A DNA stretch of 64,000 nt from an uncultured bacterium (GCA_964535215.1 CAZHST010000013.1:7758-71757), one strand, 5' to 3'; positions 55 through 28,092 are shown, numbered from the stretch's first letter. Program-made: numbers and translations. Notes: generated by a model not told the origin, from the sequence alone.

Positions 55-1152
55 CTACAGGACCCTAAGGGTGTCACGTAATGCCTGGATGAACTGGTCG
101 TTCTCGCTTGGTGTCCCGATCGTGACCCGGAGGTGGGTCTTCAGACCGTACCTGGCCATCGGATGGATCATCACCCCTTTCCTCAGAAGGGCCTCCGCAA
201 CTTGAACGGCGTCTTTTCCAACATCCACGAGGATGAAGTTCGCACTTGTCGGAACAAAGGGAAGCCCCAAGTTTTGAAACCCCTTGTAGAGCACCCTTTT
301 TCCCGCTTCGTTGAGCTGCCTGGAGAGGCGGAGGTGATCCGTGTCATGAAGGGCGGCTAAAGCGGCGACCTGGGCCAGCCCGTTCACGTTGAAGGGTTGC
401 CTGACCCGGTCCAGGAGCTGGACCAGGGCTGGCGGGGCCATCCCGTAACCGATCCGCAAACCCGCCAAACCGTGGATCTTGGAAAAGGTTCGTAAGACAA
501 GGATCAGGCGGCCCCGCCGTATCTCCTGGAGAAGGTCAGGCTTCACCTCCTCAGGCATATACTCGTAATAGGCTTCGTCAAACAGCAGGATGACCTTCTC
601 CGGAACCCGATCCAGGAAGGCCTCGATCTCTCGGGGTGGAACACAGGTTCCGGTGGGGTTGTTGGGATTACCGATGAAGATCATCTTGGTGCGATCGGTG
701 ATCCGTCGAGCCATCTCATCCAGGTCATGCCGGTACTCCTTCAAAGGGACCAGAACCAGCCGTGCGCCTGTTGCCCTGGTCGCCCTCCTGTAGACCATGA
801 AGGCCGGATCGGCGATAATGGCTTCGTCCTGAGGGCCAAGGAAGCACCGGGCGGCGAGATCGATCAATTCACAGCTTCCATTGCCAAGGAGGAAATGCGC
901 CGGATCGAGATCGAGCCTTTCAGCCAAGGCCCGCTTGAGGGCGTGGCCTCCTCCATCAGGGTACCTGTTGATTCCCTGAAGGGCTGACTGGATGGCTATG
1001 ACGGCTAAAGGTGAAGGACCAAGAGGGTTCTCGTTGGAGGCAAGTTTCACAAGGTCCCCTCCCCCCAGTTCCTTCTTGACCTCCTCGACGGGCTTGCCAA
1101 GGTTAGAGGGGGAAAGGTTTCTGAGATGCGGGGAAGCCAGCTCTTCGATCAT
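55..1152 (-). CDS. hisC: Histidinol-phosphate/aromatic aminotransferase (class I/II PLP enzyme)
   Basis: KLASNENPLGPSP, LGNGSCELI, GNPNNPTG, DEAY and RTFSKIHGLAGLRIG (PLP lysine) motifs; ATG overlaps the upstream TGA (ATGA). Confidence 0.9.
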   Translation of the reverse strand: MIEELASPHLRNLSPSNLGKPVEEVKKELGGGDLVKLASNENPLGPSPLAVIAIQSALQGINRYPDGGGHALKRALAERLDLDPAHFLLGNGSCELIDLAARCFLGPQDEAIIADPAFMVYRRATRATGARLVLVPLKEYRHDLDEMARRITDRTKMIFIGNPNNPTGTCVPPREIEAFLDRVPEKVILLFDEAYYEYMPEEVKPDLLQEIRRGRLILVLRTFSKIHGLAGLRIGYGMAPPALVQLLDRVRQPFNVNGLAQVAALAALHDTDHLRLSRQLNEAGKRVLYKGFQNLGLPFVPTSANFILVDVGKDAVQVAEALLRKGVMIHPMARYGLKTHLRVTIGTPSENDQFIQALRDTLRVL

Positions 1153-3743
1153 CGTAGGACGTGAACCTTTCCCGAGTAGCCGTCGATCTTGACCCTGGTC
1201 CCCTCCGGGAGCAAGAGGGTGGCCTTTTCCAAGACCACGGCCGGGATACCACTCTCGCGGGCCAGGCAGGCGCCATGGGCGAGGATGCCCCCTGTCTCCA
1301 GGATGAGTCCTGCTGCCTTCCTGATGAGCGGGAACATGCCTAAGTTCGCTGACCTTGCTACGATCACGACATCTTCGCTGACCTCCTCGAGACCCTTGGC
1401 GAAATCCAGCTCCTGGGGATCTATGATCCTCGCCGTTCCCACGGCTTCACCGGAAGAGACGGGGCTGCCGTGGAACTGTTGCACGGTCTCGAAGGTCGGC
1501 TTCTGACCGATCCCTTCCAAGGCATCCTCGAAGATCACGTTTGGCATCCGTCCGTGCTTTGAGAGATGAAGGGCCAACCGCCGCTCTTCTTTCCGTTGCT
1601 CTATTCTTCCTCTGATGGAATCGAAGGAGCTGAGGACCTCGGGGAGCTCTCGCGGATAGAGGTAAAAGAGGTCATCCCGTTGAAGTCCAAGTTTCTCCGC
1701 CAAGGCCAGCAAGGCCCTGCGGATCAAGGCGTACTCTGCGGTCAGGTAGTACTTCACGGTCTCCCGAAGGGGGAGGTAACGCTGGGCATAGGCGAGATCC
1801 TGAAACAGTTCCTGGATGAGGAGGGGGTTGACCCCCACCTGGGCCAGGCGGGTCCGAACCTCCTCTTCCCCTTTTCTCCTTTTTCGGGTCTGTTCGATGG
1901 CTTCGTGGAAGGGGTCCCGGGCCCCCTTCTTGAATTCTTTCACCATCCCTTCGAGGATTTGAGGATCCTCGGCGATCCTGGGGAGGGAGATCTCCAGCTC
2001 GTTGGGGGCGAGGTGACCGTAGACCTCCAGGAATTCCCTGGGGGACACCTCCCCCTGAGCGAGTCGTGCCAGGTCCCTTGTCTGTTGACCGATCTTGCTT
2101 TCCTCTAATCCCCTGAGCAGATCCCCGATCAGCCTTTCCCCTTCTTCCGGGAAGAAGGCTGTCATCTTCTTCTTGAACCTCTCGACGAAGAAAAAGCCGA
2201 GCCTGGCGGCGATGACAAAGTGGACTGCGGTAAAGGTCCTGAGATGCTCCAGATACGAGTGGATCTTTTCAACGATCTCCTCAGGAGAGACCTGGGAGGG
2301 GTCGTCGTCCCTTTCCCGGGCCAGATAGCGTTGAAGGGCTGGCTCCACCTTAAAGGAGAATTCATCGAGGTAACCCTCGGCCCTTTCAATCATCCCGGCC
2401 AGAAACTCCAGGAAGCGGGCGTGATACCTTCGCCCCCTTTTCGGGCCAAAGCGGGTGATGGCTTCTTCAAGGGTCAGACTTTGCTCGTAGAGGCCGAGCT
2501 CCGGGTAGTTTGCCAGCCGGGGGTTTGCTTTCACCTTCTTGATATAGCCTTCGATGTCAAGGGGGAAGCCAATGTGGAAGGTGGCTGCATCAAGCTCCAG
2601 GTTGAAGTAAGGATGGCCGCAGATTAGCTCGAAGAGGCCTTCGGAGGTCTTGTCGTCGAGGTCGTAGCCCAGATGCCGTCGGCCGATCTGGATCCCACCC
2701 TCTTCAGCGAAGATGTAGGTGAAGATCCCGAAGCTCATCGGCGTCGGGGTCGGGAGGATCTCCCCGATGTTCCCGTTGCTGTAAACGGCCTCGCTACAGG
2801 TGAGCCTCCCCTTTTGCCTCAGATCGGTGATCCTGGAGCGGAGCCGCTCCACCTCCTTCTTCCGATACCGCTCGATTTTTACCTCAAGCGGTTCATGGCC
2901 GATCGGGACCGGTCTCGACTGGACGATGGCAAGCTTTCCACCAGCAAAGGCGAATTCGATGTCCTGGGGCCCTTGAAAAAGGGCCTCGAGGGTCAGGCCT
3001 TGTTGAACCAAAAGGGCCAGCTGCTCGGGTGTAAGGGTCGGCCGATTCCTCCTCTCTTCCGGCACCGGGACCTCGCCCTTCAGGCAAAGCATGGAGGTTT
3101 TCTCAGAAAGTCTCTGATCAAGGATCCGTCCGTTCCTGCCCACACGGAAGACATCGCCCTGGACCTTTCCGGAAACCAGCGGCTCGCTTAAACCAAAGAC
3201 CGAGTTGATGAACAATTCCTCCCGGTCCAGCGTGATGGGGTTCAAGGTGTACATCACGCCTGAGACCTCGGCGTCGATCATCTCCTGGACCACGATGGCC
3301 ATCCCGTAGCCCTCCTGGTCCCCATCGAGGCCCATGCACCTCCGGTAAAGATCCGATCTAACGGTTTCCAGCGAAAGGAAACACTCCTTGATCGCCTCCA
3401 GGAGTTCTTCCTCCGAGCTCACGTTCAGGCGGGAGAGGTAGATGCCGGCAAAGCTTGCATGGGGGAGGTCTTCGTGGGTCGCGGAGCTTCTTACCGCAAC
3501 ATGATGAAAAGCTCGTTCTCGATAGGCCGCCAGGATCCTGTTCTTCAAAGGGTCGGGGATCTCGATCCCCCCGGAAGGGGAGCGCCCCGCTTTCCTGAAG
3601 GCGTTGGTCGTGATGACAAAGCCCCTCGGCACGGGAAGGCCGGCCTTGATCATCAGGCCCAGGTTCAAGGCCTTGACCCCAACCAGGGAAAGGTCCCCTT
3701 CCCGAACATCCCCGAGATCAAGGAGGTCCAACTCGTCAGCCAC
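1149..3743 (-). CDS. PEP/pyruvate-binding (PPDK_N) plus PEP-utilising swivel domain protein; rifampicin phosphotransferase/phenylphosphate synthase-like architecture
   Basis: N-terminal G.KA.NL, VAVRSSA..ED...SFAG and VQEM..A.VSGV, DIEFA motifs; central helical region; C-terminal GGILAHGACLARESGIPAV phospho-His motif; GTG start with SD. Confidence 0.85.
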   Translation of the reverse strand: MADELDLLDLGDVREGDLSLVGVKALNLGLMIKAGLPVPRGFVITTNAFRKAGRSPSGGIEIPDPLKNRILAAYRERAFHHVAVRSSATHEDLPHASFAGIYLSRLNVSSEEELLEAIKECFLSLETVRSDLYRRCMGLDGDQEGYGMAIVVQEMIDAEVSGVMYTLNPITLDREELFINSVFGLSEPLVSGKVQGDVFRVGRNGRILDQRLSEKTSMLCLKGEVPVPEERRNRPTLTPEQLALLVQQGLTLEALFQGPQDIEFAFAGGKLAIVQSRPVPIGHEPLEVKIERYRKKEVERLRSRITDLRQKGRLTCSEAVYSNGNIGEILPTPTPMSFGIFTYIFAEEGGIQIGRRHLGYDLDDKTSEGLFELICGHPYFNLELDAATFHIGFPLDIEGYIKKVKANPRLANYPELGLYEQSLTLEEAITRFGPKRGRRYHARFLEFLAGMIERAEGYLDEFSFKVEPALQRYLARERDDDPSQVSPEEIVEKIHSYLEHLRTFTAVHFVIAARLGFFFVERFKKKMTAFFPEEGERLIGDLLRGLEESKIGQQTRDLARLAQGEVSPREFLEVYGHLAPNELEISLPRIAEDPQILEGMVKEFKKGARDPFHEAIEQTRKRRKGEEEVRTRLAQVGVNPLLIQELFQDLAYAQRYLPLRETVKYYLTAEYALIRRALLALAEKLGLQRDDLFYLYPRELPEVLSSFDSIRGRIEQRKEERRLALHLSKHGRMPNVIFEDALEGIGQKPTFETVQQFHGSPVSSGEAVGTARIIDPQELDFAKGLEEVSEDVVIVARSANLGMFPLIRKAAGLILETGGILAHGACLARESGIPAVVLEKATLLLPEGTRVKIDGYSGKVHVLR

Positions 3744-3788: not shown

Positions 3789-4754
3789 CTACGCCGGCAC
3801 CACGGCCTCGGAGAGGCGGCGGCGATCCCGCTTCCCCCGTTCAACCACCCATCGCTTTTTCAGCTCTTCCCATTCGGGGAGGAACCGTTGGAAGGAAACG
3901 CCGTCAGGGGCCATCAAGGCCTCATCAAGGACCTTTCTGTAGAACGCGGTAATATCCCGCATCAAGCCCTCAGGATGTTCCCTTCCCGGGATCTTCAGGT
4001 AATCCACACCGATCCTGACGTAGTCGGGAAGCTCCCAGAGGAGGAGGGTAGGGTTGGTTTTTAAAGAGACTTTCTTCCGGGTAGGGCCGTCCACGCCCGA
4101 GACGTCCCATCCCGCCTGACAAACCCGGTGGCAGCTCCCCCCCCGGTTTGAGCTCCCCAGGTAGTGATCCTTGCCATCGGCGTCCACAACGTGTTCGAAC
4201 TTAAAGTAGCTGGACATGGTACACTTGCCGGGGCAGATGATTCCCCGTTGAAGAGGCTGGAACAGGAAGGCCTCCACGCGGACACCCACCTCCTGCTTGA
4301 TTCTCTTGATGTCGGCGATCTCAACCCCCCACCGGTAGGAGAGGATGATAAAGGTAGCCCCGATTTCCCGGTAGAATCGGATGTCCTCCCGGTTGGCCAC
4401 AGCGCAGGTGACGCTGGCGTGGATGTCCACATGGGGGAAATGCCTCCGCACCTGCCTGATACACCCGGGATCGTTCATGATGAAACCGTTCAAACCCCAG
4501 GTGCTGTAGGTCTCCACCTTCTTTAACAGGAGGGGGATCTCCTTCGGACCGGGCAGGGTGTTCAAGGCGACCTTTACCTCTTTCCCCGTGTCCGAAGCGG
4601 CTTCGTAGACCTCCTTGATCTCCTCATCCGTCAGCTCATCCTCGGGAGGCCGCCGGCTCCAACCCATGGCGCCGACGTAGACGGCATCAGCACCCGCCTC
4701 CAGGACGAGGAGGGCCATCTCCTTGGTCCCTCCGGGGGCCAAAAGCTTCGTCAT
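3789..4754 (-). CDS. U32 family protein, UbiU-like paralog 1 (putative Fe-S hydroxylase)
   Basis: LLAPGG, GADAVYVG..GWSRR, DIHASV, and the Cys cluster ICPGKC...SNRGGSCHRVC; LKIPGR. Confidence 0.85.
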   Translation of the reverse strand: MTKLLAPGGTKEMALLVLEAGADAVYVGAMGWSRRPPEDELTDEEIKEVYEAASDTGKEVKVALNTLPGPKEIPLLLKKVETYSTWGLNGFIMNDPGCIRQVRRHFPHVDIHASVTCAVANREDIRFYREIGATFIILSYRWGVEIADIKRIKQEVGVRVEAFLFQPLQRGIICPGKCTMSSYFKFEHVVDADGKDHYLGSSNRGGSCHRVCQAGWDVSGVDGPTRKKVSLKTNPTLLLWELPDYVRIGVDYLKIPGREHPEGLMRDITAFYRKVLDEALMAPDGVSFQRFLPEWEELKKRWVVERGKRDRRRLSEAVVPA

Positions 4755-4782
4755 CGTTTCCCTCCTAGGAAGCCTTCAGCTA

Positions 4783-4858
4783 TTAGCCATCAGCGGTCAG
4801 GTTTGAGGAGGTTCAAGGTTCAACGTTGAACTTTGAACCGTTTTTGGCTGACGGCTAA
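4783..4858. repeat. Nested palindromic intergenic element built from heptamer-like repeats
   Basis: Outer arms ttagccatcagc (4783-4794) and gctgacggctaa (4847-4858); inner near-perfect palindrome ggttcaaggttcaacgttgaactttgaacc (4810-4839). Confidence 0.7.
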
Positions 4859-5811
4859 GGGCTTATGTTCGTAAAGGTCCCTGGGGGGATCGTCGCAACC
4901 CCTAAGGCCTCCGATCCCACCAGCCGCACCAGCTCGTCGAAGAAGAGGTGGATCTCCCTAATGGTCTCTAGATCCCAGGATGTCATCACCCGGGACCGCC
5001 AGCTCTCTCTTAACGCATGGAGGACTTTGGTCTCGATCCCGCCAAGCACCTCTCGCCCGATCTCCTCCCAGATCGTGTCATCCTCTTTCATGTATGCTGC
5101 CGCCTCACAGTAGGCCTTGATAAACCCTTGGAGGAGGTCAGGGTGCTTGGCTAGGCATTCATCTTTCACGGTGAAGGCCGTGATGGGGATCATCCTTTTC
5201 ACCCCAAGTTCCCCGATCAAGTCCTGGACATCCAGGACCTGCCGGTAGCGCCCCGTGGCCACCAGGGGGGGGATCAGTTGCCAAAACTGAAAAGCGCCAT
5301 CGACCTTTCCCTCTTCGAGAAGCTGGACAAGGGCGGTCTTTGAGAGGGCCTCGACGACCCTTCCCTCTTCCTGGGGATCGAAGCCGTAGAGCTTCCGGCA
5401 GGCTCCTCTCGTGATCAGCCAGTTTTTGTCCAGGAGTCGGACAACCCCGATTCGTCTTCCCCGGAGATCCTGTAGGTCCCGGATAGGGGAGTCGTGGGGG
5501 GCGACCAATCCTCCGACGATCCTCCCGTAGGGGAAGACGGCGGTGATGGGAACCCCCCGAGTCCGATGACGGGCGATGGAGATCCAATCAATATCCACCA
5601 GGTCCGCCGTTCCGTCCTGAAGGGCGATCTCAAAGGATTGGAGGGATCCTTTGACCTGATCCTTCAGGAGGGTCATCTCCAGGAGAAAGCCCTGCTTTCG
5701 ATCCAGGCCAAGTTTTTTCAGGACGTACATCAGCCACCGGGGGCTTCCATGGGGCTCAAAGGCCGCTTTTAGGACCCCGGCTCCCGATGAGGGCTGGGTC
5801 AGCGCCGGCAT
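4855..5811 (-). CDS. NMT1/THI5/SsuA-like PBP-fold protein with no signal peptide (paralog 1)
   Basis: DLVDIDWISIARHR, DLQDLRGRRIGV and G.VDGAFQFW motifs; start moved to ATG 5811 (SD, 2 nt after the upstream stop); no hydrophobic N-terminus. Confidence 0.75.
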   Translation of the reverse strand: MPALTQPSSGAGVLKAAFEPHGSPRWLMYVLKKLGLDRKQGFLLEMTLLKDQVKGSLQSFEIALQDGTADLVDIDWISIARHRTRGVPITAVFPYGRIVGGLVAPHDSPIRDLQDLRGRRIGVVRLLDKNWLITRGACRKLYGFDPQEEGRVVEALSKTALVQLLEEGKVDGAFQFWQLIPPLVATGRYRQVLDVQDLIGELGVKRMIPITAFTVKDECLAKHPDLLQGFIKAYCEAAAYMKEDDTIWEEIGREVLGGIETKVLHALRESWRSRVMTSWDLETIREIHLFFDELVRLVGSEALGVATIPPGTFTNISP

Positions 5812-5812
5812 C

Positions 5813-6775
5813 TCATCCCCTTCCAACCGCTGCCTGGGAGAGGAGAAGGCCTGCCCGCCGGCTCCTCTCCATGGTCCACCGCTTTTTCAGCTCCTGCCAC
5901 GGAGCAACATACCGTTCCAGGGAGACTTCGCCAGGGGAGGCTTTGACCTCGTCCACGACCCCTCGATAGAATCGGACCAGGTCCCTAACCAGCTCTACGG
6001 ATCGCTCCCTCCCTTGGATTTTCAGGTACTCAACCCCTGCCTTGATGTACCCGGGCACCTCCCACAGCATGAAGGTTGGATCGGATCGTAAGGTGGTCTT
6101 TCTTAGCGTCCCCTCGGGGGAAAGGGTGAACTCCCATCCTGCCTGACAGACCCGGGAACAGCCTCTGGCCCCCCGGTTGGCGCTCCCGAGAAAGCCCTCC
6201 TCGATCCCATCAGACCAGTCTTTGTAGACAAGATAGCTGGACATGATGCACTTCCCCGGGCAGACGAGCCCCCCTTGAAGGGGTTGGAAGAGAAAGACCT
6301 CAAGTCCCACATCCAGTTCGGCCTTGATCGCTCTAACCTCCTCGACGCTCAAGCGGTAGGGGAGGATCACGAAGGTCGCGCCCAGATCCCGGTAAAACCG
6401 GATATCCTCCCGGTTTGTCAGACCGCAGCCGACACTGGTATGGATGCCAATAAAGGGGAAGTGGCGCCTCACCTCCACCAGGCACCCTGGATCGGCGATC
6501 ATGAGCCCTGAGACCCCCCAGTCCACGTACTGCTCCACCTTCTTCAAGAGAAGCTTCATCTCCGTCGGACCAGGCATGGCGTTGATGGCGACCTTCACCT
6601 CCCGCCCAAGGGTCCGGGCGAACTCGTTCAGCTCCTTGATCTCCCCATCCTTCAGATCCAGCTGGTAGGATCGCCGACTCCATCCAAAGGCCCCCACGTA
6701 GACAGCCTCGGCCCCCTCCTCCAAGACCGTGTAGGCCATCTCCAGGGTCCCACCAGGAGCCAGAAGCTTCGCCAT
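5813..6775 (-). CDS. U32 family protein, UbiU-like paralog 2
   Basis: LLAPGG, GAEAVYVG..GWSRR, VCPGKC...SANRGARGCSRVC and LKIQGRER; SD gaggagg. Confidence 0.85.
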   Translation of the reverse strand: MAKLLAPGGTLEMAYTVLEEGAEAVYVGAFGWSRRSYQLDLKDGEIKELNEFARTLGREVKVAINAMPGPTEMKLLLKKVEQYVDWGVSGLMIADPGCLVEVRRHFPFIGIHTSVGCGLTNREDIRFYRDLGATFVILPYRLSVEEVRAIKAELDVGLEVFLFQPLQGGLVCPGKCIMSSYLVYKDWSDGIEEGFLGSANRGARGCSRVCQAGWEFTLSPEGTLRKTTLRSDPTFMLWEVPGYIKAGVEYLKIQGRERSVELVRDLVRFYRGVVDEVKASPGEVSLERYVAPWQELKKRWTMERSRRAGLLLSQAAVGRG

Positions 6776-6785: not shown

Positions 6786-7742
6786 TCACGCCTTTGCCCG
6801 GGCGATAAGGCGCTCGTCCCGTCTGTTCCGCTCGGTGATCCATCGCCTTTTCAGTTCCTCGATCTCTGGAACGTACCTTTCAGGAGAGAACCCATCGGGA
6901 GAGGTCAGGATCTCATCCACCACCTTCCGGTAGAACCGGACGATGTCCCGGACGAGGGTCTCGGACCGGTCCCTCCCGGGAACCTTGAAGTACTCAACGC
7001 CCGCCTTGATGTAATCGGCCAGCTCATGGAACCAAAGGCGGGGGTTCCCCTTCAGGATGGTCTTCCTGGAGAGGGGTTGATCGTCCGTGGCCACATCCCA
7101 CCCGACCTGGCAGATCCGGAGACAGTCCCCGCCCCGGTTGGCGCTCCCGTAGAAGTAATCCTTCCCCTCGGCATCCACCCAATGCCTGAAGCTGAAGTAG
7201 CTCGACATGGTGCATTTCCCGGGGCAGATGATCCCCCCTTGGGTGTCCGTCCTGAAGAGGAAGATCTCCAGGCCCACATCAATCGTCTGCTTGATCGCCT
7301 TGACCTCCTCCAGCCACATCCGGTAAGGGAGGATGATGTAGGTGGCCCCCATGTCCTTGTAGAATTTGACGTCCTCAGCGTTTGTCAGACCCGTCCCGAC
7401 GCTGACGTGGATCGCGATCTCGGGGAAATGTTTCCTGACCTGGACCAGGCAGCCGACATCCGAGATCATGAACCCGGAGACCCCCCAGCCGATATACCGG
7501 TCCACCTTCTTCAGGAGGAGGGGGATCTCCGTAGAACTCGGCATCGTGTTCAGGACCACCCTGACCTCCTTCCCTTTGGTCTCGGCGAAGGCCACCAGAT
7601 CCCGGATCTCCTCGTCTTTCAGCTCTACGTCAGAGCCCCGCCGACTCCATCCCAAGACGCCGACGTAGACGGCATCGGCCCCTTCCTCCAACACCGAGTA
7701 GGCCATCCGCATCGTCCCACCAGGGGCCATCAACTTCGACAT
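6786..7742 (-). CDS. U32 family protein, UbiU-like paralog 3
   Basis: LMAPGG, GADAVYVG..GWSRR, ICPGKC...SANRGGDCLRIC and FKVPGRDR. Confidence 0.85.
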   Translation of the reverse strand: MSKLMAPGGTMRMAYSVLEEGADAVYVGVLGWSRRGSDVELKDEEIRDLVAFAETKGKEVRVVLNTMPSSTEIPLLLKKVDRYIGWGVSGFMISDVGCLVQVRKHFPEIAIHVSVGTGLTNAEDVKFYKDMGATYIILPYRMWLEEVKAIKQTIDVGLEIFLFRTDTQGGIICPGKCTMSSYFSFRHWVDAEGKDYFYGSANRGGDCLRICQVGWDVATDDQPLSRKTILKGNPRLWFHELADYIKAGVEYFKVPGRDRSETLVRDIVRFYRKVVDEILTSPDGFSPERYVPEIEELKRRWITERNRRDERLIARAKA

Positions 7743-7759: not shown

Positions 7760-8686
7760 TCAGGATCGTGTGCCCTGAAGCAGAAGCTCACGGCCGATAT
7801 AGTCCTGCCCGGATCTCCCGAAGGAGTAGCCGTTGCAGAAGCCTAACGGGGCTAGGGATCGAAGCTCTGTCAACCAGTGAGGGGTGCAGAACTCCTCTCC
7901 CGCCATGGCCCTTTGGAGGGCCTCGCGGTAGATGCCCCCGACCATCTTCACGTAACCAGGATCTTCACCCAGGGTATGGATGTAGAAGGTGTCAAAGCCC
8001 TGTTTCACGAGGAGGTCCAGGTGTTCCAGCAGGCAGAGGTCCTTCCCGCTCAAGTTGACCCTCCCGATGTTCTTCATGTGCCACTCCTCGTGGGTCAGCC
8101 AATGCCCCTGGGCACAACCCTCCTCGCAGTGGGCGGGGACTTTTTTCGTGTATTCGGTGAGGAAGCAGGTGGCCGAGATCACCAGGGGGATCTTGCCGTG
8201 GAGGGGGAGGATGACCTGGATAGGGGTATGATCCCTGATGTAGAGGATCTCCTCCAGGCTGAGCTCAGCGTTCGGGAAGACCCGCACGACCCCGTAGCCT
8301 TTCAGGACCCTGGCCGTCTCGTCGGTGTAGAGGTTGCCGAAGACCCCTAAATGGATAGGGATCTCACCCCTGAGTTCCCTGACGATCCTCAAAAGCCCCA
8401 TGCTGTGGACCTCAATGCCATCAAGGGGGAGGTCTCTCGACTCCTGCACAAGGACCCTAATCCAGGGAAGATCGCTGTCCTTCGGGATCGCATAAAGACT
8501 CAAGTAGCATTTCTTACCCATGGCCTTCACCCGGTAGACCCCTTCTCGGAGCTCTTGGAGGCACGAGCTGAAGTTGCCGGGGTAGAGGGGGCAGGTGAAG
8601 TCGCCCAGGTAGAGGGCGTCATAGGCTGAAAAGTCATAGGCTTGGAGCTTCTCCATGTTGGGGACATGGGTCGCTAACTCAAACAT
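7760..8686 (-). CDS. U32 family protein, UbiV-like
   Basis: LYLGDFTCP resembles UbiV YLGE.VC; HGKIPLVISATCF...HCEEGC resembles UbiV G.LPLA.S.RCF...C..CC. Confidence 0.75.
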   Translation of the reverse strand: MFELATHVPNMEKLQAYDFSAYDALYLGDFTCPLYPGNFSSCLQELREGVYRVKAMGKKCYLSLYAIPKDSDLPWIRVLVQESRDLPLDGIEVHSMGLLRIVRELRGEIPIHLGVFGNLYTDETARVLKGYGVVRVFPNAELSLEEILYIRDHTPIQVILPLHGKIPLVISATCFLTEYTKKVPAHCEEGCAQGHWLTHEEWHMKNIGRVNLSGKDLCLLEHLDLLVKQGFDTFYIHTLGEDPGYVKMVGGIYREALQRAMAGEEFCTPHWLTELRSLAPLGFCNGYSFGRSGQDYIGRELLLQGTRS

Positions 8687-8762: not shown

Positions 8763-8777
8763 GCAAATACTGTTCCA
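8763..8777 (-). promoter_or_regulatory. Sigma-54 (-24/-12) promoter for the U32 operon
   Basis: Minus strand reads TGGAACAGTATTTGC (GG-N10-GC), about 77 nt upstream of the ATG at 8686. Confidence 0.7.
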
Positions 8778-8934: not shown

Positions 8935-9642
8935 TTAGAGGAGATTATATCTGAAGGCAAGGACGAGGGCTTCGAGTTTGGTATGCACCCCAAGCTTTCC
9001 CAGGATCCTCTGGGTGTGATTCCTCGCGGTGGCTGTGCTGATGTGGAGGGCTTCGGCGATCCCCTTGGCGGTTTCACCCCTGGCGATGAGCCTCAAGACC
9101 TCCTGCTCACGAGGGGTCAGGGCCCGAAGCGGGGAAGGAGGGTCTAAAGGGCGGGCCGGTTCCTTCTGAACCAACAAGGTGGCTTGACCGAGGAGGGTAT
9201 GGATCCGTTCCAGGAGCCTCTCCGTCGCCACGTGGTTGGTGACATCTCGGAAGAGGTGGACCATAGTGAACAGGTCCGGAGACATGGATGGAACGACAAT
9301 GACGCTCACATTGATCCAGATCGTCCGGCCTGTCTTGGTTCGGGTCAGGAGGTCGCTCGTCTCGACAGGTTCCCCTTTCTTCGCCGTTTCAAGGAGAGGG
9401 CACCCTGGACCACATAGCCGTTGCCCGGTGCGGCTCCTCCCGCCAAAGATCTCATAGCAGGGCTTCCCGAGCACCTCGCCGGCCTGGTACCCCAGGAGCC
9501 GCTCGGCCGCCTGGTTCCAAAGGATGACCCGCTGGGTCTGGTCAATGGCGAAGGCACCATCGGCAGCCCTCATAAACATCTCCAGAATGGCGGGGAGGCC
9601 ACCTCCGATGCCAGGGGACTTCTCGTTGACGGCCTGACGCAA
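8935..9642 (-). CDS. PAS domain plus LuxR-type HTH transcriptional regulator
   Basis: N-terminal PAS (AFAID...WNQAAERLLGY...GKPCYEIF); C-terminal LTPREQEVLRLIARG...IAEAL.IS..TARNH...ILGKLGV. Confidence 0.88.
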   Translation of the reverse strand: MRQAVNEKSPGIGGGLPAILEMFMRAADGAFAIDQTQRVILWNQAAERLLGYQAGEVLGKPCYEIFGGRSRTGQRLCGPGCPLLETAKKGEPVETSDLLTRTKTGRTIWINVSVIVVPSMSPDLFTMVHLFRDVTNHVATERLLERIHTLLGQATLLVQKEPARPLDPPSPLRALTPREQEVLRLIARGETAKGIAEALHISTATARNHTQRILGKLGVHTKLEALVLAFRYNLL

Positions 9643-9656: not shown

Positions 9657-10457
9657 CTAGATCCCCCCCCGGCTCAGCCGGACGAGTTTGGCCTCTTTAT
9701 CGAAGAGGGCCGTGGCGGCCAGGAGCATGGTGGCACTGAAGACGGAAAGGGCCATGAGATCTACCAGGACGGGGAGATCCGCTTCCATAGGGGTCAGGGT
9801 GGCATGGGGGAGGAGGACATGCTTGAAGAGGTCGATCCCGTAGGTGAGGGGATTCAGGTACATAGGGATCTGGAGCAGATCCGGGAGCAGCTTCACCGGG
9901 TAGAGGCCCCCGCTTAAGAAGAACATGGGGAAGACAACGAAGTTCATGATGGTGGCGAAGTTCTCCAGGGAGTCGATCCTCGTCGCCATCAGCATCCCCA
10001 GCGAGGCAACGGCGAAGGAGGTGAGAAAGAGGAAGAAGAGGAGCAGGAGGAGCTGGAGGGGGCCAACCGGGAGCCTCAAGAACGGGACGAGGATCAAGAG
10101 GAGGAGGGCCTGGAAGACGGCCAGCAGGGTACCTCCCATGACCTTTCCCAGAACGAGGGTTAGGCGGGAGACGGGGGCGATCAGCATGATCCTGACAACC
10201 CCGAACTCCCGATCGTAGACGGTGGAGAGGGACGAGAGCATGGCGCCGAAGAGGACGACGATCCCCAGGACGCCAGGGAAGAGGAACTGCTGGTAGGAGA
10301 TCCCTCCCTCCCCACCGAGGAGCCGATCGAAGCCAGGACCGACGATGAAGAGCCAGAAGAGGGGGCGGGCGAGGGAGCTCCACAAACGACCCTTTTGGCG
10401 GAAGAACCGCTTGAATTCCCGGAGGACGATTACCGAGAGCGGCTTCAGCTGAAGCAT
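9657..10457 (-). CDS. ABC-2 type transporter permease (PedC/DrrB-like)
   Basis: Multiple hydrophobic segments; YDREFG, FPMFFLSG.LYP and NPLTYGID motifs; ATG 10457 overlaps the upstream TGA. Confidence 0.85.
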   Translation of the reverse strand: MLQLKPLSVIVLREFKRFFRQKGRLWSSLARPLFWLFIVGPGFDRLLGGEGGISYQQFLFPGVLGIVVLFGAMLSSLSTVYDREFGVVRIMLIAPVSRLTLVLGKVMGGTLLAVFQALLLLILVPFLRLPVGPLQLLLLLFFLFLTSFAVASLGMLMATRIDSLENFATIMNFVVFPMFFLSGGLYPVKLLPDLLQIPMYLNPLTYGIDLFKHVLLPHATLTPMEADLPVLVDLMALSVFSATMLLAATALFDKEAKLVRLSRGGI

Positions 10458-10969
10458 CACTGCTGGGCCAGGTCCTTCATCAACGCGTCGATCCCTGCTT
10501 GGCAGGCCTGAGCGTCCTGATCCCCCCGGGCGCCGCTGGCCCCGCACCCTCCAATCACCGTCCCTCCCACGATAATGGGGAGGCCTCCTTCGAGGATCAT
10601 CACCCGGTCGAGGTGCTGGATGCCGTAGGCCCGTCCGTCAGGCCGGGCGATGTCCTGCAGGGCCTTCGTCGGACGCTGGAAGAAAACGGCGGTCGCTGCT
10701 TTCCTGATGGCGACTTCGATGGAGCCGAGGAAGGCGTCGTCCATTCGTTGGAAGTAGACCAAGTTGGCCCCATCGTCCACGATGGCGATGTTCAGCTTCC
10801 AGCCGTTTCTGATCGCCTCCAGTTCAGCGGCAGCGGCTACCTTCTTGGCAGCTTCCAGGGTGAGGGCCTTCTTCTCCCTAAGTTGCGCATGGCCAGGTTG
10901 AGCCAGGGCTAAGGCAAGGGCCAGAACAATACAGCCCCCGACGAACCACCGTAGACCTCTTCTCATCAT
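10457..10969 (-). CDS. GlcG/HbpS family heme-binding protein with a Sec signal peptide
   Basis: IAIVDDGANL...RMD, A..KA.TA and GGLPII.....IGG.GASGA...QD motifs; signal peptide ending AQPGHA. Confidence 0.85.
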   Translation of the reverse strand: MMRRGLRWFVGGCIVLALALALAQPGHAQLREKKALTLEAAKKVAAAAELEAIRNGWKLNIAIVDDGANLVYFQRMDDAFLGSIEVAIRKAATAVFFQRPTKALQDIARPDGRAYGIQHLDRVMILEGGLPIIVGGTVIGGCGASGARGDQDAQACQAGIDALMKDLAQQ

Positions 10970-11006
10970 TCTCCCTCCTTAAGGTTAAGGTTTCACGGTT
11001 CTTGTC

Positions 11007-11921
11007 CTATCGAATCGCCCGCCCCGTTAGGTGGATGAAGACTTCGTTCAGGGAAGGCCGGGTAATGTTGATGGCCAGGATCTTTCCACCAAAGCTGCTT
11101 AAGAGACGGGGGAGGAGGGTCTCGGCGGAGTCCACCTCCAGGAAGAGACCGTCCTGGGTCCGCTTCGTCACCACCGCGAACTGCCTCCGGATTTCATCCT
11201 CCACCCTGGCATCGTCAGTCGTCTTCAGGTGGATGACCTCCCCTTTGATCGTCCGCTTCAGCGTCTCCGGGGTTCCCAGGGCGATGATCCTCCCGTGGTC
11301 GATGATCGCAACCCGGTCGCATCGCTCCGCCTCATCCAGGTAGTGGGTGGTCAGGAAGATGGTCATGTGCTCCTGTTCCCGCAGCCGGTTAATCAGGTCC
11401 CAGATCGCAACCCGGGCCTGCGGGTCTAATCCGAGGGTGGGCTCATCGAGGAAGAGGATCCTCGGGCGGTGGAGGAGACCTCTGGCGAGATCCACACGCC
11501 GTTTCAGGCCTCCCGAGAGGGTCTTGACCAGGGCATCCCTTCGATCCGTTAGCTCCAGAACCTTCAGGGTCTCCCCGATCCGTTCCCGGGCCTCATGGCG
11601 CTTCATGTTGTAGAGGTAACAGGTAAGGAGGAGGTTCTCCTGTACGGTCAGGTCCTTGTCAAGGGTCGTCTCCTGGAAGACAAGGCCGATGGCGTTTCGG
11701 ACATGACGGGCCTCGGTTGTGCAGTCATATCCGTTGACTTTAGCCGATCCGGATGTCGGCTTCAAGAGGGTGCACAGCATATGGATGGTCGTGGTCTTGC
11801 CGGCGCCGTTTGGTCCCAGGAAGCCGAAGAACTCCCCGGCCTTGACCTCAAAGGTCACGCCGTCCACCGCCGTGGTGGCTCCAAAGCGCTTCACCAACCC
11901 TTTAGCCTCGATTGCCAGCAC
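11007..11921 (-). CDS. ABC transporter ATP-binding protein (DrrA/PedB-like)
   Basis: Walker A GPNGAGKT, signature LSGG, Walker B LFLDEPT, and LTTHY. Confidence 0.92.
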   Translation of the reverse strand: MLAIEAKGLVKRFGATTAVDGVTFEVKAGEFFGFLGPNGAGKTTTIHMLCTLLKPTSGSAKVNGYDCTTEARHVRNAIGLVFQETTLDKDLTVQENLLLTCYLYNMKRHEARERIGETLKVLELTDRRDALVKTLSGGLKRRVDLARGLLHRPRILFLDEPTLGLDPQARVAIWDLINRLREQEHMTIFLTTHYLDEAERCDRVAIIDHGRIIALGTPETLKRTIKGEVIHLKTTDDARVEDEIRRQFAVVTKRTQDGLFLEVDSAETLLPRLLSSFGGKILAINITRPSLNEVFIHLTGRAIR

Positions 11922-13913: not shown

Positions 13914-14861
13914 TTACGAAACGAGGGATGTGGTGAAGGTCCCTGAGGGGATATGGTCAACCCCTAGGACCTCCTTCCCACCGACCTTCAGGAGCTCGTC
14001 GAAGAGGCGGTGGATGCCCCTGATGGTCTCCTCATCCCACCCGGTCATGACCATCTCCCGCCACCCATCCCGGATGGCGTGGACCAGCCGGGGGTCAGCC
14101 CCCTCCATCATCTTCTCGCCGAGTTCCTCCCAGATCTGATCGTTCCGCTTCATATACCCGGCCACCTCCCGGAAGGCCCCGATGAAGCCCCGGAGGAGAT
14201 CCGGGCGCTCTTCAACCACTTCCTCCCGGGTGACGAAGGCCGAGATCGGGATCCTCTCTTTTGTCCCGGCCAACTCCTGCACAAGCTCGACCATGTCAAC
14301 GACCTTCCGGTACCGGCCGGTGAACAGGAACACGGGCACATACTGCCAGAAGAGGAGGGCGCCGTCCACCTCGCCTCTCTCCAGGGCATGGTTCAGCCTC
14401 GATTTCGAGAGGGCCTCGACGACGATCGCCTCCTCCTGGGGATCGAAGCGGTAGAGCTTTCGGCAAGCGGCCCGGGTGACTACCCAGTTCTTGTCATGAA
14501 TCCGGACGACGCCGATCCGTTTCCCCCGGATGTCAGGGAGGGTGTGGATCGGGGATCCGTTGGGGACGATGAGACTTCCGATGGTCTGGCCGTACGGAAA
14601 GAAGGACGTGATCGGTAGGCCTTTGGCCCGTTCCCGGGCGATGGAGATCCAGTCAATATCGATGAGATCAGCCTCCCCCTTCTGGAGGGCCAGCTCGACA
14701 GACTCCAAAGCCTGCTGGACCTGATCAACGGCATATTTGATCTCCAGCTTGAATCCGTGCTTTCGATCCACGCCGAGCTTCTGAATCGTGTACATGACGA
14801 AACGAGGGGTCCCTGTCGTCTCGAAGGCCCCCCGCAAGATTGGGAGAGTTTCGCGGCCCAT
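13914..14861 (-). CDS. NMT1/THI5/SsuA-like PBP-fold protein with no signal peptide (paralog 2)
   Basis: Closely parallels 4855-5811 (DIDWISIAR, KNW..TR.ACRKLY.FDPQEE, IP.GTFT); ATG 14861 with SD ggaggagga. Confidence 0.75.
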   Translation of the reverse strand: MGRETLPILRGAFETTGTPRFVMYTIQKLGVDRKHGFKLEIKYAVDQVQQALESVELALQKGEADLIDIDWISIARERAKGLPITSFFPYGQTIGSLIVPNGSPIHTLPDIRGKRIGVVRIHDKNWVVTRAACRKLYRFDPQEEAIVVEALSKSRLNHALERGEVDGALLFWQYVPVFLFTGRYRKVVDMVELVQELAGTKERIPISAFVTREEVVEERPDLLRGFIGAFREVAGYMKRNDQIWEELGEKMMEGADPRLVHAIRDGWREMVMTGWDEETIRGIHRLFDELLKVGGKEVLGVDHIPSGTFTTSLVS

Positions 14862-14895
14862 TCCTCCTCCTTTGAGCACCATGGATCCGGGTTTC

Positions 14896-16530
14896 CTACC
14901 GCTCCTTCGGTTTGAAGGTCACCTCCATCATTGAACCAAGCAGCCTGACCTCGACACTCCCGAGCCATCGCTTGTCCTGGAAAGGATGATCGTCCCGGTA
15001 ATGGGGCCCCCGGCTTTCCTCCCGTGTCAGGGCCGACACCGTGACCGCTTCAGCCACCACGCACATCCCCTGGAGGGTCCGATGGTGGAGCCACTCCTTC
15101 GGGTTCCGGATGGCGCATCCTTCCAGGAAGGATCGGCAGGCCTGGATCTCTTCCTGGGCCTTCCTGAGGGAGGCGCCGGAGCGGAAGAGGCCAACCTGTT
15201 CCCACATGATCCGGCGGAGGTGGGCTTCAACCTCTGGCAGGGAGGCCTCTCCGGGCCGCCGGTGGAACTCCAAGGGCGAAACCGGTGTCGGGATTGACCG
15301 CCTGGTCCTGGCGTAGAGAGCGGCCTCCCGTCCCGCTAAGGCCCCTGAGACCTGGGTGTGGGCGACGGCATTCCCCCCGAAGCGCTTCGCCCCGTGCACG
15401 CCTCCAACGGCCTCGCCGGCGGCGTAGAGACCGGGGATTTCAGTCCTCCCTCTGGTCTTCACCTTGACCCCCCCGGTGAACAGATTGGCCCGGACCCCAA
15501 CCACCAAAAAATCCTTTCGAGGATCGATGCCGTTCCGGAGGAGGGCGTCGAACAAGAAGGGGTACCGGTCCCGCCAAACCTCCATGGGGATAGCTGTGGC
15601 GTCCAGGTAGATCCCCCCGTCAACACCCCGGCCCTCCGCGACCTCTTTCAACAAGAGCCTTGGCATCTCCTCCCGGAACGAGGCCTCCTCCCCGAGAGGG
15701 TTATGCGGGAGGATGAAGCGCTCGCCCAAGACGTTCCTCAAGACCCCACCAAAGCTGAAGAGATCAGGGGGGAGATTCGTTTCCAGAGATTGAGGGCGGA
15801 GGAGGCGACAGGGGTTGAACTCGACGAACTCCATGTCCTTGATGGTTGCCCCAACGTCCAGGGCAAGGGTGTAGGAGTCCCCCGTCAGATCCTGGCTGTT
15901 CGAGGTGACCGCATAGAGCCATCCGGCCCCACCGGTGGCCAGGATCACGGCCCGGGCCGGCAGAAAGACGACCTCGCCTGTTGTGGTATCGAAGCCAAAG
16001 GCCCCCCCTACTTCCCCATCATACCGGAAAAGCTTCACGATGGGGAGGTGATTGATCAGGGTGACCCCCAAACGCCGGGCCTGTTCAGCCAAGGGCCGGG
16101 TCAGGGAAGATCCCCTGACCGAAAACCCGTACCCGGTATAGTCAGGTTCGATCCCTGAGGGGAGGAGGGCCCCATCGCCCCGGCCGAGGAGAAACCCTCC
16201 CTTTTTCCTATGCAACTTCACCCCCAGGGCTTCAAGGGCCAGGATCTCCTTCCCGGCATGGGTCACCAGCTCTTCGACCAGGGCCTCATCGTTCAAAAAC
16301 TTCCCAACGGCCATCGTATCCTTGAAGTGGACCTCCACCGCCTCGGGAGGGTCTGTAGGAAGGGCAGCAATCATGGAGCAGCCAGCGTACATGGTGCTCC
16401 CGCTCCGTCCGGCCTCCTCTTTACAGACCAGGACCACATCGTCCACGAGCTTCTTCGCCTCGATGGCCGCCCGGAGGCCGGCCCCCCCTCCACCAACCAC
16501 GAGGACATCACAGGGTTCAAGGATTCGCAT
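14896..16530 (-). CDS. FAD-dependent oxidoreductase, SdhA/FrdA/NadB flavoprotein superfamily (stand-alone)
   Basis: VVGGGGAGLRAA, VILATGG, TGD, GLYAAGE..GGVHGA.R.GGN and A..REESRG.HYR.D.P motifs. Confidence 0.85.
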   Translation of the reverse strand: MRILEPCDVLVVGGGGAGLRAAIEAKKLVDDVVLVCKEEAGRSGSTMYAGCSMIAALPTDPPEAVEVHFKDTMAVGKFLNDEALVEELVTHAGKEILALEALGVKLHRKKGGFLLGRGDGALLPSGIEPDYTGYGFSVRGSSLTRPLAEQARRLGVTLINHLPIVKLFRYDGEVGGAFGFDTTTGEVVFLPARAVILATGGAGWLYAVTSNSQDLTGDSYTLALDVGATIKDMEFVEFNPCRLLRPQSLETNLPPDLFSFGGVLRNVLGERFILPHNPLGEEASFREEMPRLLLKEVAEGRGVDGGIYLDATAIPMEVWRDRYPFLFDALLRNGIDPRKDFLVVGVRANLFTGGVKVKTRGRTEIPGLYAAGEAVGGVHGAKRFGGNAVAHTQVSGALAGREAALYARTRRSIPTPVSPLEFHRRPGEASLPEVEAHLRRIMWEQVGLFRSGASLRKAQEEIQACRSFLEGCAIRNPKEWLHHRTLQGMCVVAEAVTVSALTREESRGPHYRDDHPFQDKRWLGSVEVRLLGSMMEVTFKPKER

Positions 16531-16549
16531 CGAACATCCAACAGGAAGG

Positions 16550-17512
16550 TCAGTCGAGGGTATTCGGGGCAAACAGTTCTTCAGGGACAAGCTTCTTTTC
16601 GATCAGATGCTGCTCGTAGAGATACTGGAGATAGGTTTCAAGGACGTGGCGATTGGCCTTCAGGCCGTAAGGCCAAAAGTCCTGCCCCATCTCCTTCCAG
16701 AGGTCGTCCATGTAGTAATCCAGCCACGGGACGGTATATTTCAGAGCTTCCATCGTCTCCTTGAGATCCTGGTAACAGACCTCTTTCGCCTTGACGAAGG
16801 CCCGGTAGAGGCTGCTAGCCACCCATGGATGCTGTTCGTAAACCGATTCCTTAATGACAACCATGTGCAGGATCGGAAAGATCCCTGTCCGCTTGTAATA
16901 CTCCGCCTCAACGGCTTTCGGGTTGGCGAAAAGCCGTTTCACGGAGGGGTGCTGGTTTCTGAACTTGGGCGGGACCCGGGGGGCGATCAGGGCATCAATC
17001 TCCCCGTCCTCCAACCGGTCAGGCAGCATCTTCCCCGGAGGGAAGAGGGTGACCCTTATCTCCTTGGGGAGGTCGAGGCCGACCTCGGCCCGCGCCGTGT
17101 ACCACTCGATGGTGGTCAAATCGACGCCATAGTCCTGCTTGAGGATCCCCCTAGCCCACACGGCGATGGACATCTGGTACTGGCCGGAGGCAACCCGCTT
17201 CCCCTCCAGGTCTTTTGGTTTCTCGATCCCAGCCTTCGTGTTGACGAAGATGCCCCCATGAGGAAAGGCCCTGGCCAGGAAGACAGGGATGGCGATGTAA
17301 GGAGCCTCCCCCCTGGCCCGGAGCATGGTGTAGGTTGCCAGGGTCATCTCTGAGGCGTCGAATTCCTGAAAGCGGACCATAGGCCACACCGAGTCATCGG
17401 GCGTATACGGCAGGATGTTTAGGTCAATGCCGGCCGGTTCGACGACCTTGAGCATCAGGGGTTTGACCCGGTCATAGTCCAAGCAGGCCAGGGTCAGCGG
17501 GAGTTTCGCCAT
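16550..17512 (-). CDS. 4,5-dihydroxyphthalate decarboxylase-like PBP-fold protein
   Basis: MAKLPLTLACLDYDR N-terminus; FDASEM, AIPVF..RAF.H and YY..TGIFPI.H.VVI motifs; no signal peptide. Confidence 0.75.
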   Translation of the reverse strand: MAKLPLTLACLDYDRVKPLMLKVVEPAGIDLNILPYTPDDSVWPMVRFQEFDASEMTLATYTMLRARGEAPYIAIPVFLARAFPHGGIFVNTKAGIEKPKDLEGKRVASGQYQMSIAVWARGILKQDYGVDLTTIEWYTARAEVGLDLPKEIRVTLFPPGKMLPDRLEDGEIDALIAPRVPPKFRNQHPSVKRLFANPKAVEAEYYKRTGIFPILHMVVIKESVYEQHPWVASSLYRAFVKAKEVCYQDLKETMEALKYTVPWLDYYMDDLWKEMGQDFWPYGLKANRHVLETYLQYLYEQHLIEKKLVPEELFAPNTLD

Positions 17513-17532
17513 GGATCTTCTCCTCCTAACCG

Positions 17533-18561: not shown

Positions 18562-18630
18562 CGGCAGATCCCCTGATCTACAACACGATGCTGGACGTAG
18601 AAAACAGCCCTCCCAGCGGGCATCCGACAC

Positions 18631-19638: not shown

Positions 19639-19667
19639 GGATCGTCTCCTTTTTGGCGTTTGAACCC

Positions 19668-20654: not shown

Positions 20655-20670
20655 AGCATACTTTGTGCCA
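20655..20670 (-). promoter_or_regulatory. Sigma-54 (-24/-12) promoter for the creatininase-to-LuxR operon
   Basis: Minus strand reads TGGCACAAAGTATGCT (GG-N10-GC). Confidence 0.75.
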
Positions 20671-24600: not shown

Positions 24601-24660
24601 GGGGAACTCCGCCTCCTCCCTTAGAATGCCTCACAAAACTCACCGCCCAGGCCTAAAGGG

Positions 24661-24700
24661 CGCAGAGAAAAACTTGGGACTTTCCTTAGCGTTCTCTGCG
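24661..24700. repeat. Intergenic REP-like inverted repeat
   Basis: cgcagagaa (24661-24669) and ttctctgcg (24692-24700). Confidence 0.45.
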
Positions 24701-24729
24701 TCTCTACGGTTTTGATCGGCGCTCTTAAT

Positions 24730-25632: not shown

Positions 25633-25723
25633 CTCCTTTCCTGCCGAAACGCACGAAGGGAGGGCAGGAGATCCCTCCCGCCCTCCCCCGTACGGCCCAC
25701 GCCATTTCGGATCCAAGGCGGCC

Positions 25724-27445: not shown

Positions 27446-27603
27446 TGTTTCCTCCTCATACCTTCTCGTGAACAGCGCTCAACACTCTCCCTAGCTCTCT
27501 TGGGCCCAACCCCCTTCCACCCCCTTTCAGATCCTAAGCTCCTTGCTGAAGGGAGGTTCCTTCCCCATTATTAGCCGTACCAATCCCTGGCCGAGGTAGT
27601 TTA

Positions 27604-27632
27604 AATTTACAACACTGTTCTATTTCAGTCAA
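27604..27632 (-). promoter_or_regulatory. Sigma-70-type promoter for dehydrogenase 1
   Basis: TTGACT-N17-TAAATT; the spacer contains the palindrome AACAGTGTT. Confidence 0.6.
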
Positions 27633-27695
27633 GAAAAATACCACTGATCCCCCCAGAGCCGGCACCAGTCGGCGTCTGAGGGGACCAGGGGGGAT

Positions 27696-28082: not shown

Positions 28083-28092
28083 CGTCTAGGCC

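Follow-up and report, generated by a model that had tools for sequence, protein, structure and literature searches.

The closest described relatives of the gene analysed here are dikinases that act on small molecules. Phenylphosphate synthase (PpsAB), CreHI and HpeHI phosphorylate phenolic hydroxyls by the same histidine relay, and the phosphate is removed later in the pathway (PMC12167813). In RPH-Lm, the rifampicin phosphotransferase (RPH) of Listeria, R666, E667 and K670 form the phosphate-transfer triad, with roles assigned by mutational analysis (PMC4844700). For hydroxylation by U32 proteins, prephenate has been proposed as the oxygen donor, with release of phenylpyruvate (PMC10990095), and PqqT, seen in the PDB entries 9B1U, 9B1V and 9OOZ, is the periplasmic pyrroloquinoline quinone (PQQ)-binding protein of Methylorubrum extorquens AM1 (PMC11331073). 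Here we describe a gene for an RPH-like dikinase in a 64,000-nucleotide (nt) stretch of DNA from an uncultured bacterium (GCA_964535215.1, CAZHST010000013.1:7758-71757; the window in what follows). It lies in an operon with genes for four U32 proteins, a PqqT-like binding-fold protein and an aminotransferase, which probably encodes an oxygen-free pathway tied to PQQ that has not been described before.

The dikinase gene belongs to an operon conserved across phyla

The operon runs along the minus strand of the window:

7760-8686, minus strand: UbiV-like U32 paralog a, with which the operon begins
6786-7742, minus strand: U32 paralog b (UbiU-like)
5813-6775, minus strand: U32 paralog c (UbiU-like)
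4855-5826, minus strand: leaderless PqqT-like binding-fold protein (P0122), likely start ATG at 5811
3789-4754, minus strand: U32 paralog d (UbiU-like), directly upstream of the kinase
1149-3743, minus strand: RPH-like small-molecule dikinase (864 amino acids (aa), P0001; stop codon included)
55-1152, minus strand: HisC-family aminotransferase, translationally coupled to the kinase

The first-pass annotation of this DNA had placed the kinase next to hydroxylases, and the four U32 genes do lie directly upstream on the same strand; this arrangement, together with the domain arrangement of the kinase, is well beyond chance expectation. To the set of 47 loci from one-genome-per-species contigs we added loci from an identity look-up. 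The order U32, U32, U32, binding protein, U32, kinase was present at all loci with a kinase of at least 34% identity and enough flank (∼40 loci in at least four phyla), and no U32 cluster surrounded the kinase relatives at 30% and 25% identity. Hosts of the cluster include Methylomirabilota (NC10), Rhodoblastus and other Alphaproteobacteria, Motiliproteus, Neptunomonas, Halopseudomonas, Novimethylophilus, Thiorhodococcus and Thiodictyon, as well as one metagenome-assembled genome (MAG) each from the Deltaproteobacteria and the Acidobacteriota. The invariant synteny across phyla supports the idea that the kinase works with the U32 proteins. It strongly supports the earlier proposal that the kinase would act on a substrate or product of these enzymes; the acceptor itself we infer. 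No description of the cluster was found in the literature on U32 proteins in combination with PEP synthase (PEP, phosphoenolpyruvate), aminotransferase, rifampicin phosphotransferase or PQQ.

The aminotransferase gene is present in nearly all cluster loci. In Proteobacteria, a short-chain dehydrogenase/reductase (SDR) gene often directly follows the kinase, and an FAH-family gene is frequent, with 2,4-diketo-acid hydrolase as its best match (359 bits; cut-off 500). About 11 genomes carry a DSPc phosphatase of the aryl-phosphate type in the cluster, and in Rhodoblastus it is fused to the aminotransferase. The operon U32 proteins scored 39-123 bits against the UbiU and UbiV models (cut-offs 275 and 440). 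Three cysteines are invariant in all of these paralogs and a fourth is available in each type, four being the number of 4Fe-4S ligands. A gap of 103 nt (4755-4857), which the first-pass annotation had marked as a nested palindrome, separates the binding-protein gene from the last U32 gene.

Some MAGs have broken-looking cluster genes: the last U32 gene is split in two in one (L007: 9023-9981), and the binding-protein gene is apparently frameshifted in another (L016: 7962-8889) and contains stop codons in a third (L045: 7892-8986). These could reflect decay or assembly errors.

The kinase has the domains and catalytic residues of an RPH-like dikinase

The kinase reading frame comprises 864 uninterrupted codons on the minus strand (1149-3743). 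A strong Shine-Dalgarno sequence, AAGGGAGGGAG, precedes its GTG start codon at 3743, and at its 3' end the stop codon TGA and the aminotransferase start codon ATG overlap as ATGA. Pfam assigned PPDK_N to residues 61-283 (E 1e-65) and the PEP-utilizers mobile domain (PF00391) to residues 789-858 (E 1e-14), and the PEP-utilizers_C barrel (PF02896) gave no Pfam match in the kinase. In kinase homologs, precomputed Pfam annotation assigns PF27448 (Rph_4th) to the middle part. The resulting architecture is as follows:

2895-3743, minus strand: ATP-grasp (PPDK_N) domain, residues 1-283, carrying K24, R85, S104, E263, Q275 and R277
1494-2894, minus strand: mostly helical middle domain, approximately residues 284-750, from Rph_4th on homologs and model secondary structure
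1752-1766, minus strand: R660-E661-x2-K664, counterpart of the RPH-Lm triad R666/E667/K670
1152-1493, minus strand: C-terminal swivelling phospho-histidine domain, residues 751-864 (PF00391)
1272-1292, minus strand: GGILAHG motif, residues 818-824, with the His823 codon at 1275-1277

The AlphaFold2 model of the kinase reached a mean pLDDT (predicted local distance difference test) of 91.2 with an input alignment of 73 homologs. Its only full-length structural match was RPH-Lm (5hv1, Foldseek E 4e-39). Matches to HpeI (9goj), PEP synthase and PPDK were confined to the ATP-grasp domain, whose fold also matches 5hv6. The domain mapping that the first-pass annotation had suggested (PPDK_N at 61-283, PEP-utilizers at 789-858, no barrel), the residue mapping below and the fold search all bear out its description of an ATP-grasp domain, a helical middle and a C-terminal GGILAHG swivel with no pyruvate barrel. 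The domain order is that of RPH, as it had stated, and the likeness it saw to phenolic dikinases reappears in the match of the ATP-grasp fold to HpeI.

Catalytic residues were mapped by phmmer alignment to 5FBS and read against the mutational analysis of RPH-Lm (PMC4844700). K22, R117, T136, E297, Q309 and R311 of RPH-Lm correspond to K24, R85, S104, E263, Q275 and R277, respectively, of the kinase, the triad R666/E667/K670 to R660/E661/K664, and H825 to H823. In the alignment of 73 homologs, which spans 36-94% identity, K24, R85, E263, Q275, R277, R660, E661, K664 and H823 are all invariant; S104 is not. As the phosphotransfer residues of RPH are invariant among the homologs, the kinase should be an active dikinase, with His823 as the predicted phospho-carrier. 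Residues 282-546 were left unaligned to RPH by phmmer, and most rifampin-contact residues fall in that part. The middle domain is the counterpart of the rifampin-binding domain and is presumed to hold the pocket for the second substrate.

Scores against the NCBIfam models of named families were low throughout: 312 bits for the PRK06241-type 'PEP synthase' model (cut-off 945), 287 and 190 bits for the RPH equivalogs NF041857 / NF000283 (cut-offs 999 and 1700), 237 bits for RedH (cut-off 1350), 234 bits for PigC (cut-off 1300) and 224 bits for PEP synthase TIGR01418 (cut-off 739.75). Among 1.84 billion representative proteins, the kinase subfamily comprises ∼15 clusters at 420 bits or more, and other full-length relatives plateau at 375 bits or less. 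The scores far under the RPH, PigC/RedH and PEP synthase cut-offs set the group apart, and we regard it, from these comparisons, as a small, distinct subfamily of the RPH-like dikinases. The domain order, the GGxxxHG histidine, the ATP-site residues and the Arg-Glu-x2-Lys residues are those of that superfamily. The kinase has neither the TIM barrel nor the central histidine domain that PEP synthase and PPDK have, and the same genome carries a separate PPDK-type gene of 923 aa for central metabolism. It is also a single chain of 864 aa, not a two-polypeptide dikinase of the PpsAB/CreHI/HpeHI kind. The kinase is a new form of an already known kind of enzyme, within an operon that possibly encodes a new pathway.

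Members of the nearest sister subfamily are 33-36% identical to the kinase, and some reach ∼1200 aa with an additional C-terminal part. In both places examined (including L060: 3-4426), their genes lie directly 3' of a PQQ_2/BamB-type beta-propeller gene; this Pfam family is generic, and we did not count it as evidence.

The operon encodes a putative cytoplasmic PqqT homolog

A profile built from 30 orthologs of the binding-fold protein matched PqqT (9B1U, 9B1V and 9OOZ) over its full length (E 3e-41). The AlphaFold2 model (pLDDT 93.4) superimposed on PQQ-bound PqqT with template modelling (TM) scores of 0.87/0.93 and a root-mean-square deviation of 1.8 Å, and the next-best fold, Thi5, reached a TM score of only 0.69. 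Residues that contact PQQ in PqqT are largely retained in the orthologs encoded by the cluster:

PqqT T41: Ser or Thr in 30/30 cluster orthologs
PqqT G112: Gly in 30/30
PqqT D141: Asp in 29/30
PqqT K142: Lys in 30/30
PqqT N143: Asn in 29/30
PqqT Y188: aromatic in 23/30

The region of PqqT around the quinone-facing Asn70/Arg74 is remodelled in the cluster orthologs. The operon protein shares the fold and PQQ-contact residues of PqqT and departs from it in location: it has no signal peptide or hydrophobic leader, and the conserved motif L(R/K)AAFExTGSPxW starts at most ∼15 residues from the N terminus in the binding-protein orthologs (n = 30). From sequence and model, we take the protein to be a leaderless, cytoplasmic homolog of PqqT.

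Two further leaderless PqqT-like paralogs are encoded by a second sigma-54-type operon of the window (13914-20540, minus strand), one at 13914-14882 (55% identical to the copy in the kinase operon) and one at 16550-17512. This operon, which adjoins a sigma-54 two-component system and xoxF genes, further comprises genes for a flavoprotein resembling NadB/SdhA, a pair of luciferase-like oxidoreductases and a hydrolase of the creatininase family. It was rejected as a part of the cluster, its genes not accompanying the cluster in other phyla.

The cluster tracks PQQ use or synthesis across genomes

Scoring pqqC as a TIGR02111 match over its cut-off, we found the gene in 25/30 cluster genomes outside NC10, against 35/200 Alphaproteobacteria and 29/200 Gammaproteobacteria in even samples (∼16%). 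Fisher's test gave p 2e-14 for this association, a value overstated by relatedness among the genomes; the association involves no fewer than six separate lineages. Of the other cluster genomes, 13 have no pqqC, and PQQ-dependent dehydrogenases are encoded in 12 of these, compared with 1/14 control genomes. The Deltaproteobacteria MAG has a PQQ dehydrogenase gene immediately upstream of the cluster and divergently oriented to it. In the window, PQQ-dependent enzymes are encoded close to the operon:

23731-30622, minus strand: two sets of genes for xoxF-like PQQ-dependent dehydrogenases, accompanied by XoxJ-like and cytochrome c genes, 15-20 kb from the operon

No pqqC was found in this genome (95.7% complete), in M. 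oxyfera or in six other NC10 genomes; pqqB and pqqD had no match over their cut-offs in this genome and M. oxyfera, nor did pqqE in this genome. In a sample of 81 Methylomirabilota genomes, the kinase was confined to this genome and 7 of the 13 genomes of one Methylomirabilis genus. Within that genus, kinase and pqqC never occur together: seven genomes have the kinase without pqqC, four have pqqC without the kinase and two lack them both (one-sided p 0.02, again subject to the relatedness of the genomes). The phylum-sample and Gammaproteobacteria-baseline tallies include the unpublished genomes G267, G285, G296, G357 and G458, of which G357 and G458 are in the Gammaproteobacteria baseline; the genus-level contrast between kinase and pqqC is independent of them. 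Overall, the cluster tracks PQQ use or synthesis across genomes.

For a genome with no pqqB, pqqC or pqqE, this one has an unusually large quinoprotein complement: its matches to the PQQ dehydrogenase beta-propeller family number at least 14.

The aminotransferase is related to aromatic amino acid biosynthesis

The closest paralog of the operon aminotransferase in the genome (66% identity) lies on contig C35 between pheA, encoding chorismate mutase/prephenate dehydratase, and the genes for DAHP (3-deoxy-D-arabino-heptulosonate 7-phosphate) synthase and tyrA. This identity to a paralog in a phenylalanine/tyrosine biosynthesis operon marks the operon aminotransferase, by sequence, as aromatic-type. 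It could recycle the phenylpyruvate proposed as a by-product of U32 hydroxylation or act on a tyrosine-type substrate. The same identity led us to reject, as the main reading, the histidinol-phosphate logic that its HisC family would suggest. The fusion of DSPc phosphatase and aminotransferase in Rhodoblastus favours some link with a phosphorylated intermediate.

Proposed function and alternatives

The best constraint on the substrate of the kinase is the PqqT homology of the operon's binding-fold protein. The first-pass annotation, correct as far as it went, had missed both this homolog and the PQQ context. The reading we favour, with about even confidence, is that the kinase would be a dikinase dedicated to a pathway of U32 and PqqT-like proteins, in which it would phosphorylate a hydroxyl on an aromatic intermediate related to PQQ. 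By analogy with RPH, PpsAB, CreHI and HpeHI, His823 on the swivel would receive the beta-phosphate of ATP from the ATP-grasp domain, with AMP and Pi as released products. Docking of the swivel on the helical middle domain would follow, and there R660, E661 and K664 may position the phosphate for transfer to the substrate hydroxyl. This hydroxyl would most likely be phenolic or enolic and sit on an aromatic intermediate of anionic character, probably tyrosine-derived and PQQ-related, that is made or used by the four U32 hydroxylases and carried by the cytoplasmic PqqT-like protein. The phosphate could be there temporarily, for protection or recognition, until DSPc (where present) takes it off, or it could be the group that leaves on ring closure. 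The pathways of homologous dikinases, in which a substrate is phosphorylated, transformed and dephosphorylated, provide a precedent (PMC12167813).

Several points weigh against this reading. Since oxidised PQQ offers no hydroxyl for phosphorylation, only a precursor or the quinol could be the acceptor. Phosphorylation of a phenol makes the ring less electron-rich, which fits poorly with the proposed ring oxidation by U32 proteins if it comes first, and the NC10 clusters have no DSPc gene. An identity of ∼25% to PqqT is no proof of the same ligand, and the co-occurrence statistics are overstated by the interrelatedness of the counted genomes. Many Methylomirabilota with PQQ dehydrogenases do not have the cluster, and many carry neither cluster nor pqqC; the cluster is thus not generally needed for PQQ use. 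In Proteobacteria it is not physically linked to pqq operons, and no PqqA-like peptide was found in the 251-nt leader or in the other short intergenic gaps. A complete PQQ route from seven genes would, finally, need unprecedented C-C bond formation.

A more far-reaching proposal, which we consider possible but put clearly below the one we favour, is that the operon constitutes an oxygen-independent PQQ route, either complete, in Methylomirabilis without pqqB, pqqC and pqqE, or as an anaerobic bypass of PqqB/PqqC in facultative Proteobacteria. In known PQQ synthesis, both late steps (PqqB and PqqC) depend on O2. Along such a route, installing the ring oxygens would fall to the U32 proteins and carrying tricarboxylate intermediates to the PqqT-like protein; the part of the dikinase would be to activate a phenolic oxygen or protect it, for example for C-N ring closure without quinone chemistry. 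According to one account, which takes the point from an earlier study, M. oxyfera is reported to be without complete PQQ synthesis genes and yet relies on a PQQ methanol dehydrogenase (PMC8163242, citing Wu et al. 2015). If the proposal is true, it would explain the source of the cofactor for the methanol dehydrogenase of anaerobic methane oxidisers. The distribution of the cluster is such that it complements pqqC within Methylomirabilis and accompanies it in facultative Proteobacteria. Anaerobic PQQ supply becomes testable in the culturable hosts Rhodoblastus acidophilus, Motiliproteus sediminis and Thiorhodococcus minor.

The kinase might alternatively be an activating enzyme like PigC and RedH, phosphorylating a carbonyl, enol or phenol oxygen so that the phosphate leaves on attack by an amine or carbon nucleophile; if PQQ or a quinone like it is made without oxygen, such a step could, for example, close a ring or exchange a tyrosine-type C-O bond for C-N. 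In favour of this, HapC and PigC use phosphate as a leaving group in bond formation, and in canonical PQQ synthesis the tyrosine OH position ends bonded to N6. PigC and RedH are among the best NCBIfam matches (∼235 bits) and have the same three-domain build, but these scores are far under the cut-offs of 1300 (PigC) and 1350 (RedH). In NC10, where the clusters are without a phosphatase, no stable phospho-product is needed, whereas the cluster phosphatase of many Proteobacteria points to a phospho-ester that persists. No partner for a second substrate was found. We judge this explanation unlikely.

Slightly less probable again is a kinase of anaerobic phenolic catabolism unrelated to PQQ, in which substrates would be phosphorylated, oxidised and dephosphorylated as in the Cre and Hpe pathways, with U32 proteins in place of the oxygenase. 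Homologous dikinases do start the catabolism of phenol, cresol and hydroxyacetophenone; the cluster is accompanied in Proteobacteria by genes for an SDR, a 2,4-diketo-acid hydrolase-like FAH protein and a phosphatase, and LysR or PAS-LuxR regulators are found at it. However, the conserved core in NC10 has no SDR, FAH or phosphatase genes, and transporter, ring-reduction and ring-cleavage genes are not conserved at the cluster. This explanation would also leave the PqqT homology and the co-occurrence with PQQ unaccounted for.

We think it very improbable that the enzyme is a protein-directed or regulatory phosphotransferase, acting for instance on the U32 complex or the binding protein. Although a swivelling histidine domain is common to enzyme I of the phosphotransferase system (PTS) and to pyruvate kinase-associated domains, every enzyme of this three-domain order that has been characterised has a small molecule as its substrate, and here the middle domain is homologous to a small-molecule pocket and the phosphate-transfer triad is invariant. 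Least probable of all is a true RPH conferring rifamycin resistance, or a PEP synthase supplying PEP for prephenate synthesis: these are the top named database matches, and annotations read 'pyruvate, water dikinase' or 'rifampicin phosphotransferase', but the models score 287 bits against 999 (RPH) and 224 against 740 (PEP_synth), the PEP/pyruvate barrel is absent and a separate 923-aa PPDK-like gene is present in the genome, middle-domain residues 282-546 cannot be aligned, and the synteny with U32 genes is strict.

If phosphorylation of a PQQ-related intermediate, the reading we favour, is true, a biosynthetic, hydroxylase-coupled role would be added to a kinase family so far associated with antibiotic resistance, phenol catabolism and prodiginine ligation, and the U32 enzymes would gain a fourth substrate class.

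Neighbouring genes and other features

Upstream of the operon lie a regulator gene and a candidate promoter element:

8763-8777, minus strand: sigma-54-like -24/-12 element TGGAAC-N5-TTGC, upstream of the operon (match count alone not above chance)
8935-9642, minus strand: PAS-LuxR regulator, syntenic in NC10 genomes
20656-20670: second sigma-54-like element

In Proteobacteria, the position of the regulator is taken by LysR instead of PAS-LuxR. Just upstream of the regulator, an ABC-2 exporter pair (9657-11921, minus strand) has an HbpS/GlcG-like gene between its ATPase and permease genes, and this set is syntenic also in the closest NC10 MAG (L009).

Elsewhere in the genome, contig C24 carries a second set of three U32 genes, one of them UbiV-like, at ∼32.6-35.4 kb (L057: 5572-8438). 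It is flanked by genes for a family III CoA-transferase and an AMP-forming ligase and by an aldehyde dehydrogenase gene, a setting that suggests a further hydroxylation system independent of oxygen, with a CoA-activated acid as its substrate.

Comparison with known systems

RPH-Lm (5FBS, 5FBT, 5FBU and 5HV1; PMC4844700) has the same three-domain order as the kinase, the same ATP-site residues and R/E/K triad and a C-terminal catalytic histidine. Overall identity is, however, only ∼22%, and the pocket part (282-546) is unalignable by sequence. RPH-Lm is also the product of a solitary resistance gene, whereas the kinase gene shares a conserved operon with hydroxylase genes.

The phenolic dikinases PpsAB, CreHI and HpeHI resemble the kinase in ATP-grasp domain, pocket and swivel-histidine mechanism, and their pathways pair a phenolic-OH kinase with an oxidising enzyme and, later, a phosphatase (PMC12167813). 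They differ in that they consist of two polypeptides, are catabolic and have oxygenases or carboxylases as partners; the kinase is one chain, and its partners are U32 Fe-S proteins and a PqqT-like protein. The prodiginine ligases PigC, RedH and HapC are, like the kinase, single chains of the same architecture, and in them an oxygen is activated by phosphorylation for bond formation. The kinase in contrast scores ∼235 bits against cut-offs of 1300-1350 and has no pyrrole pathway context.

With its UbiU-like and UbiV-like Fe-S proteins and a ligand carrier, the operon recalls UbiU-UbiV-UbiT, which carries out several ring hydroxylations without O2 (PMC10990095). The carrier there is an SCP2 protein, whereas here it is a PqqT-like binding fold, and a dikinase and an aminotransferase are added. 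The operon furthermore has three UbiU-like proteins and one UbiV-like protein, all under the NCBIfam cut-offs, and its hosts extend beyond the phyla that make ubiquinone. Ubiquinone synthesis, which this set of U32 proteins had brought to mind, was set aside in view of a carrier that resembles PqqT instead of SCP2 and of the presence of the cluster in NC10 and Acidobacteriota. PqqT itself shares with the operon protein its fold and contacts of the Thr41, Gly112, Asp141, Lys142, Asn143 and Tyr188 type; the operon protein, only ∼25% identical, differs from it in having neither a signal peptide nor an ABC transporter partner.

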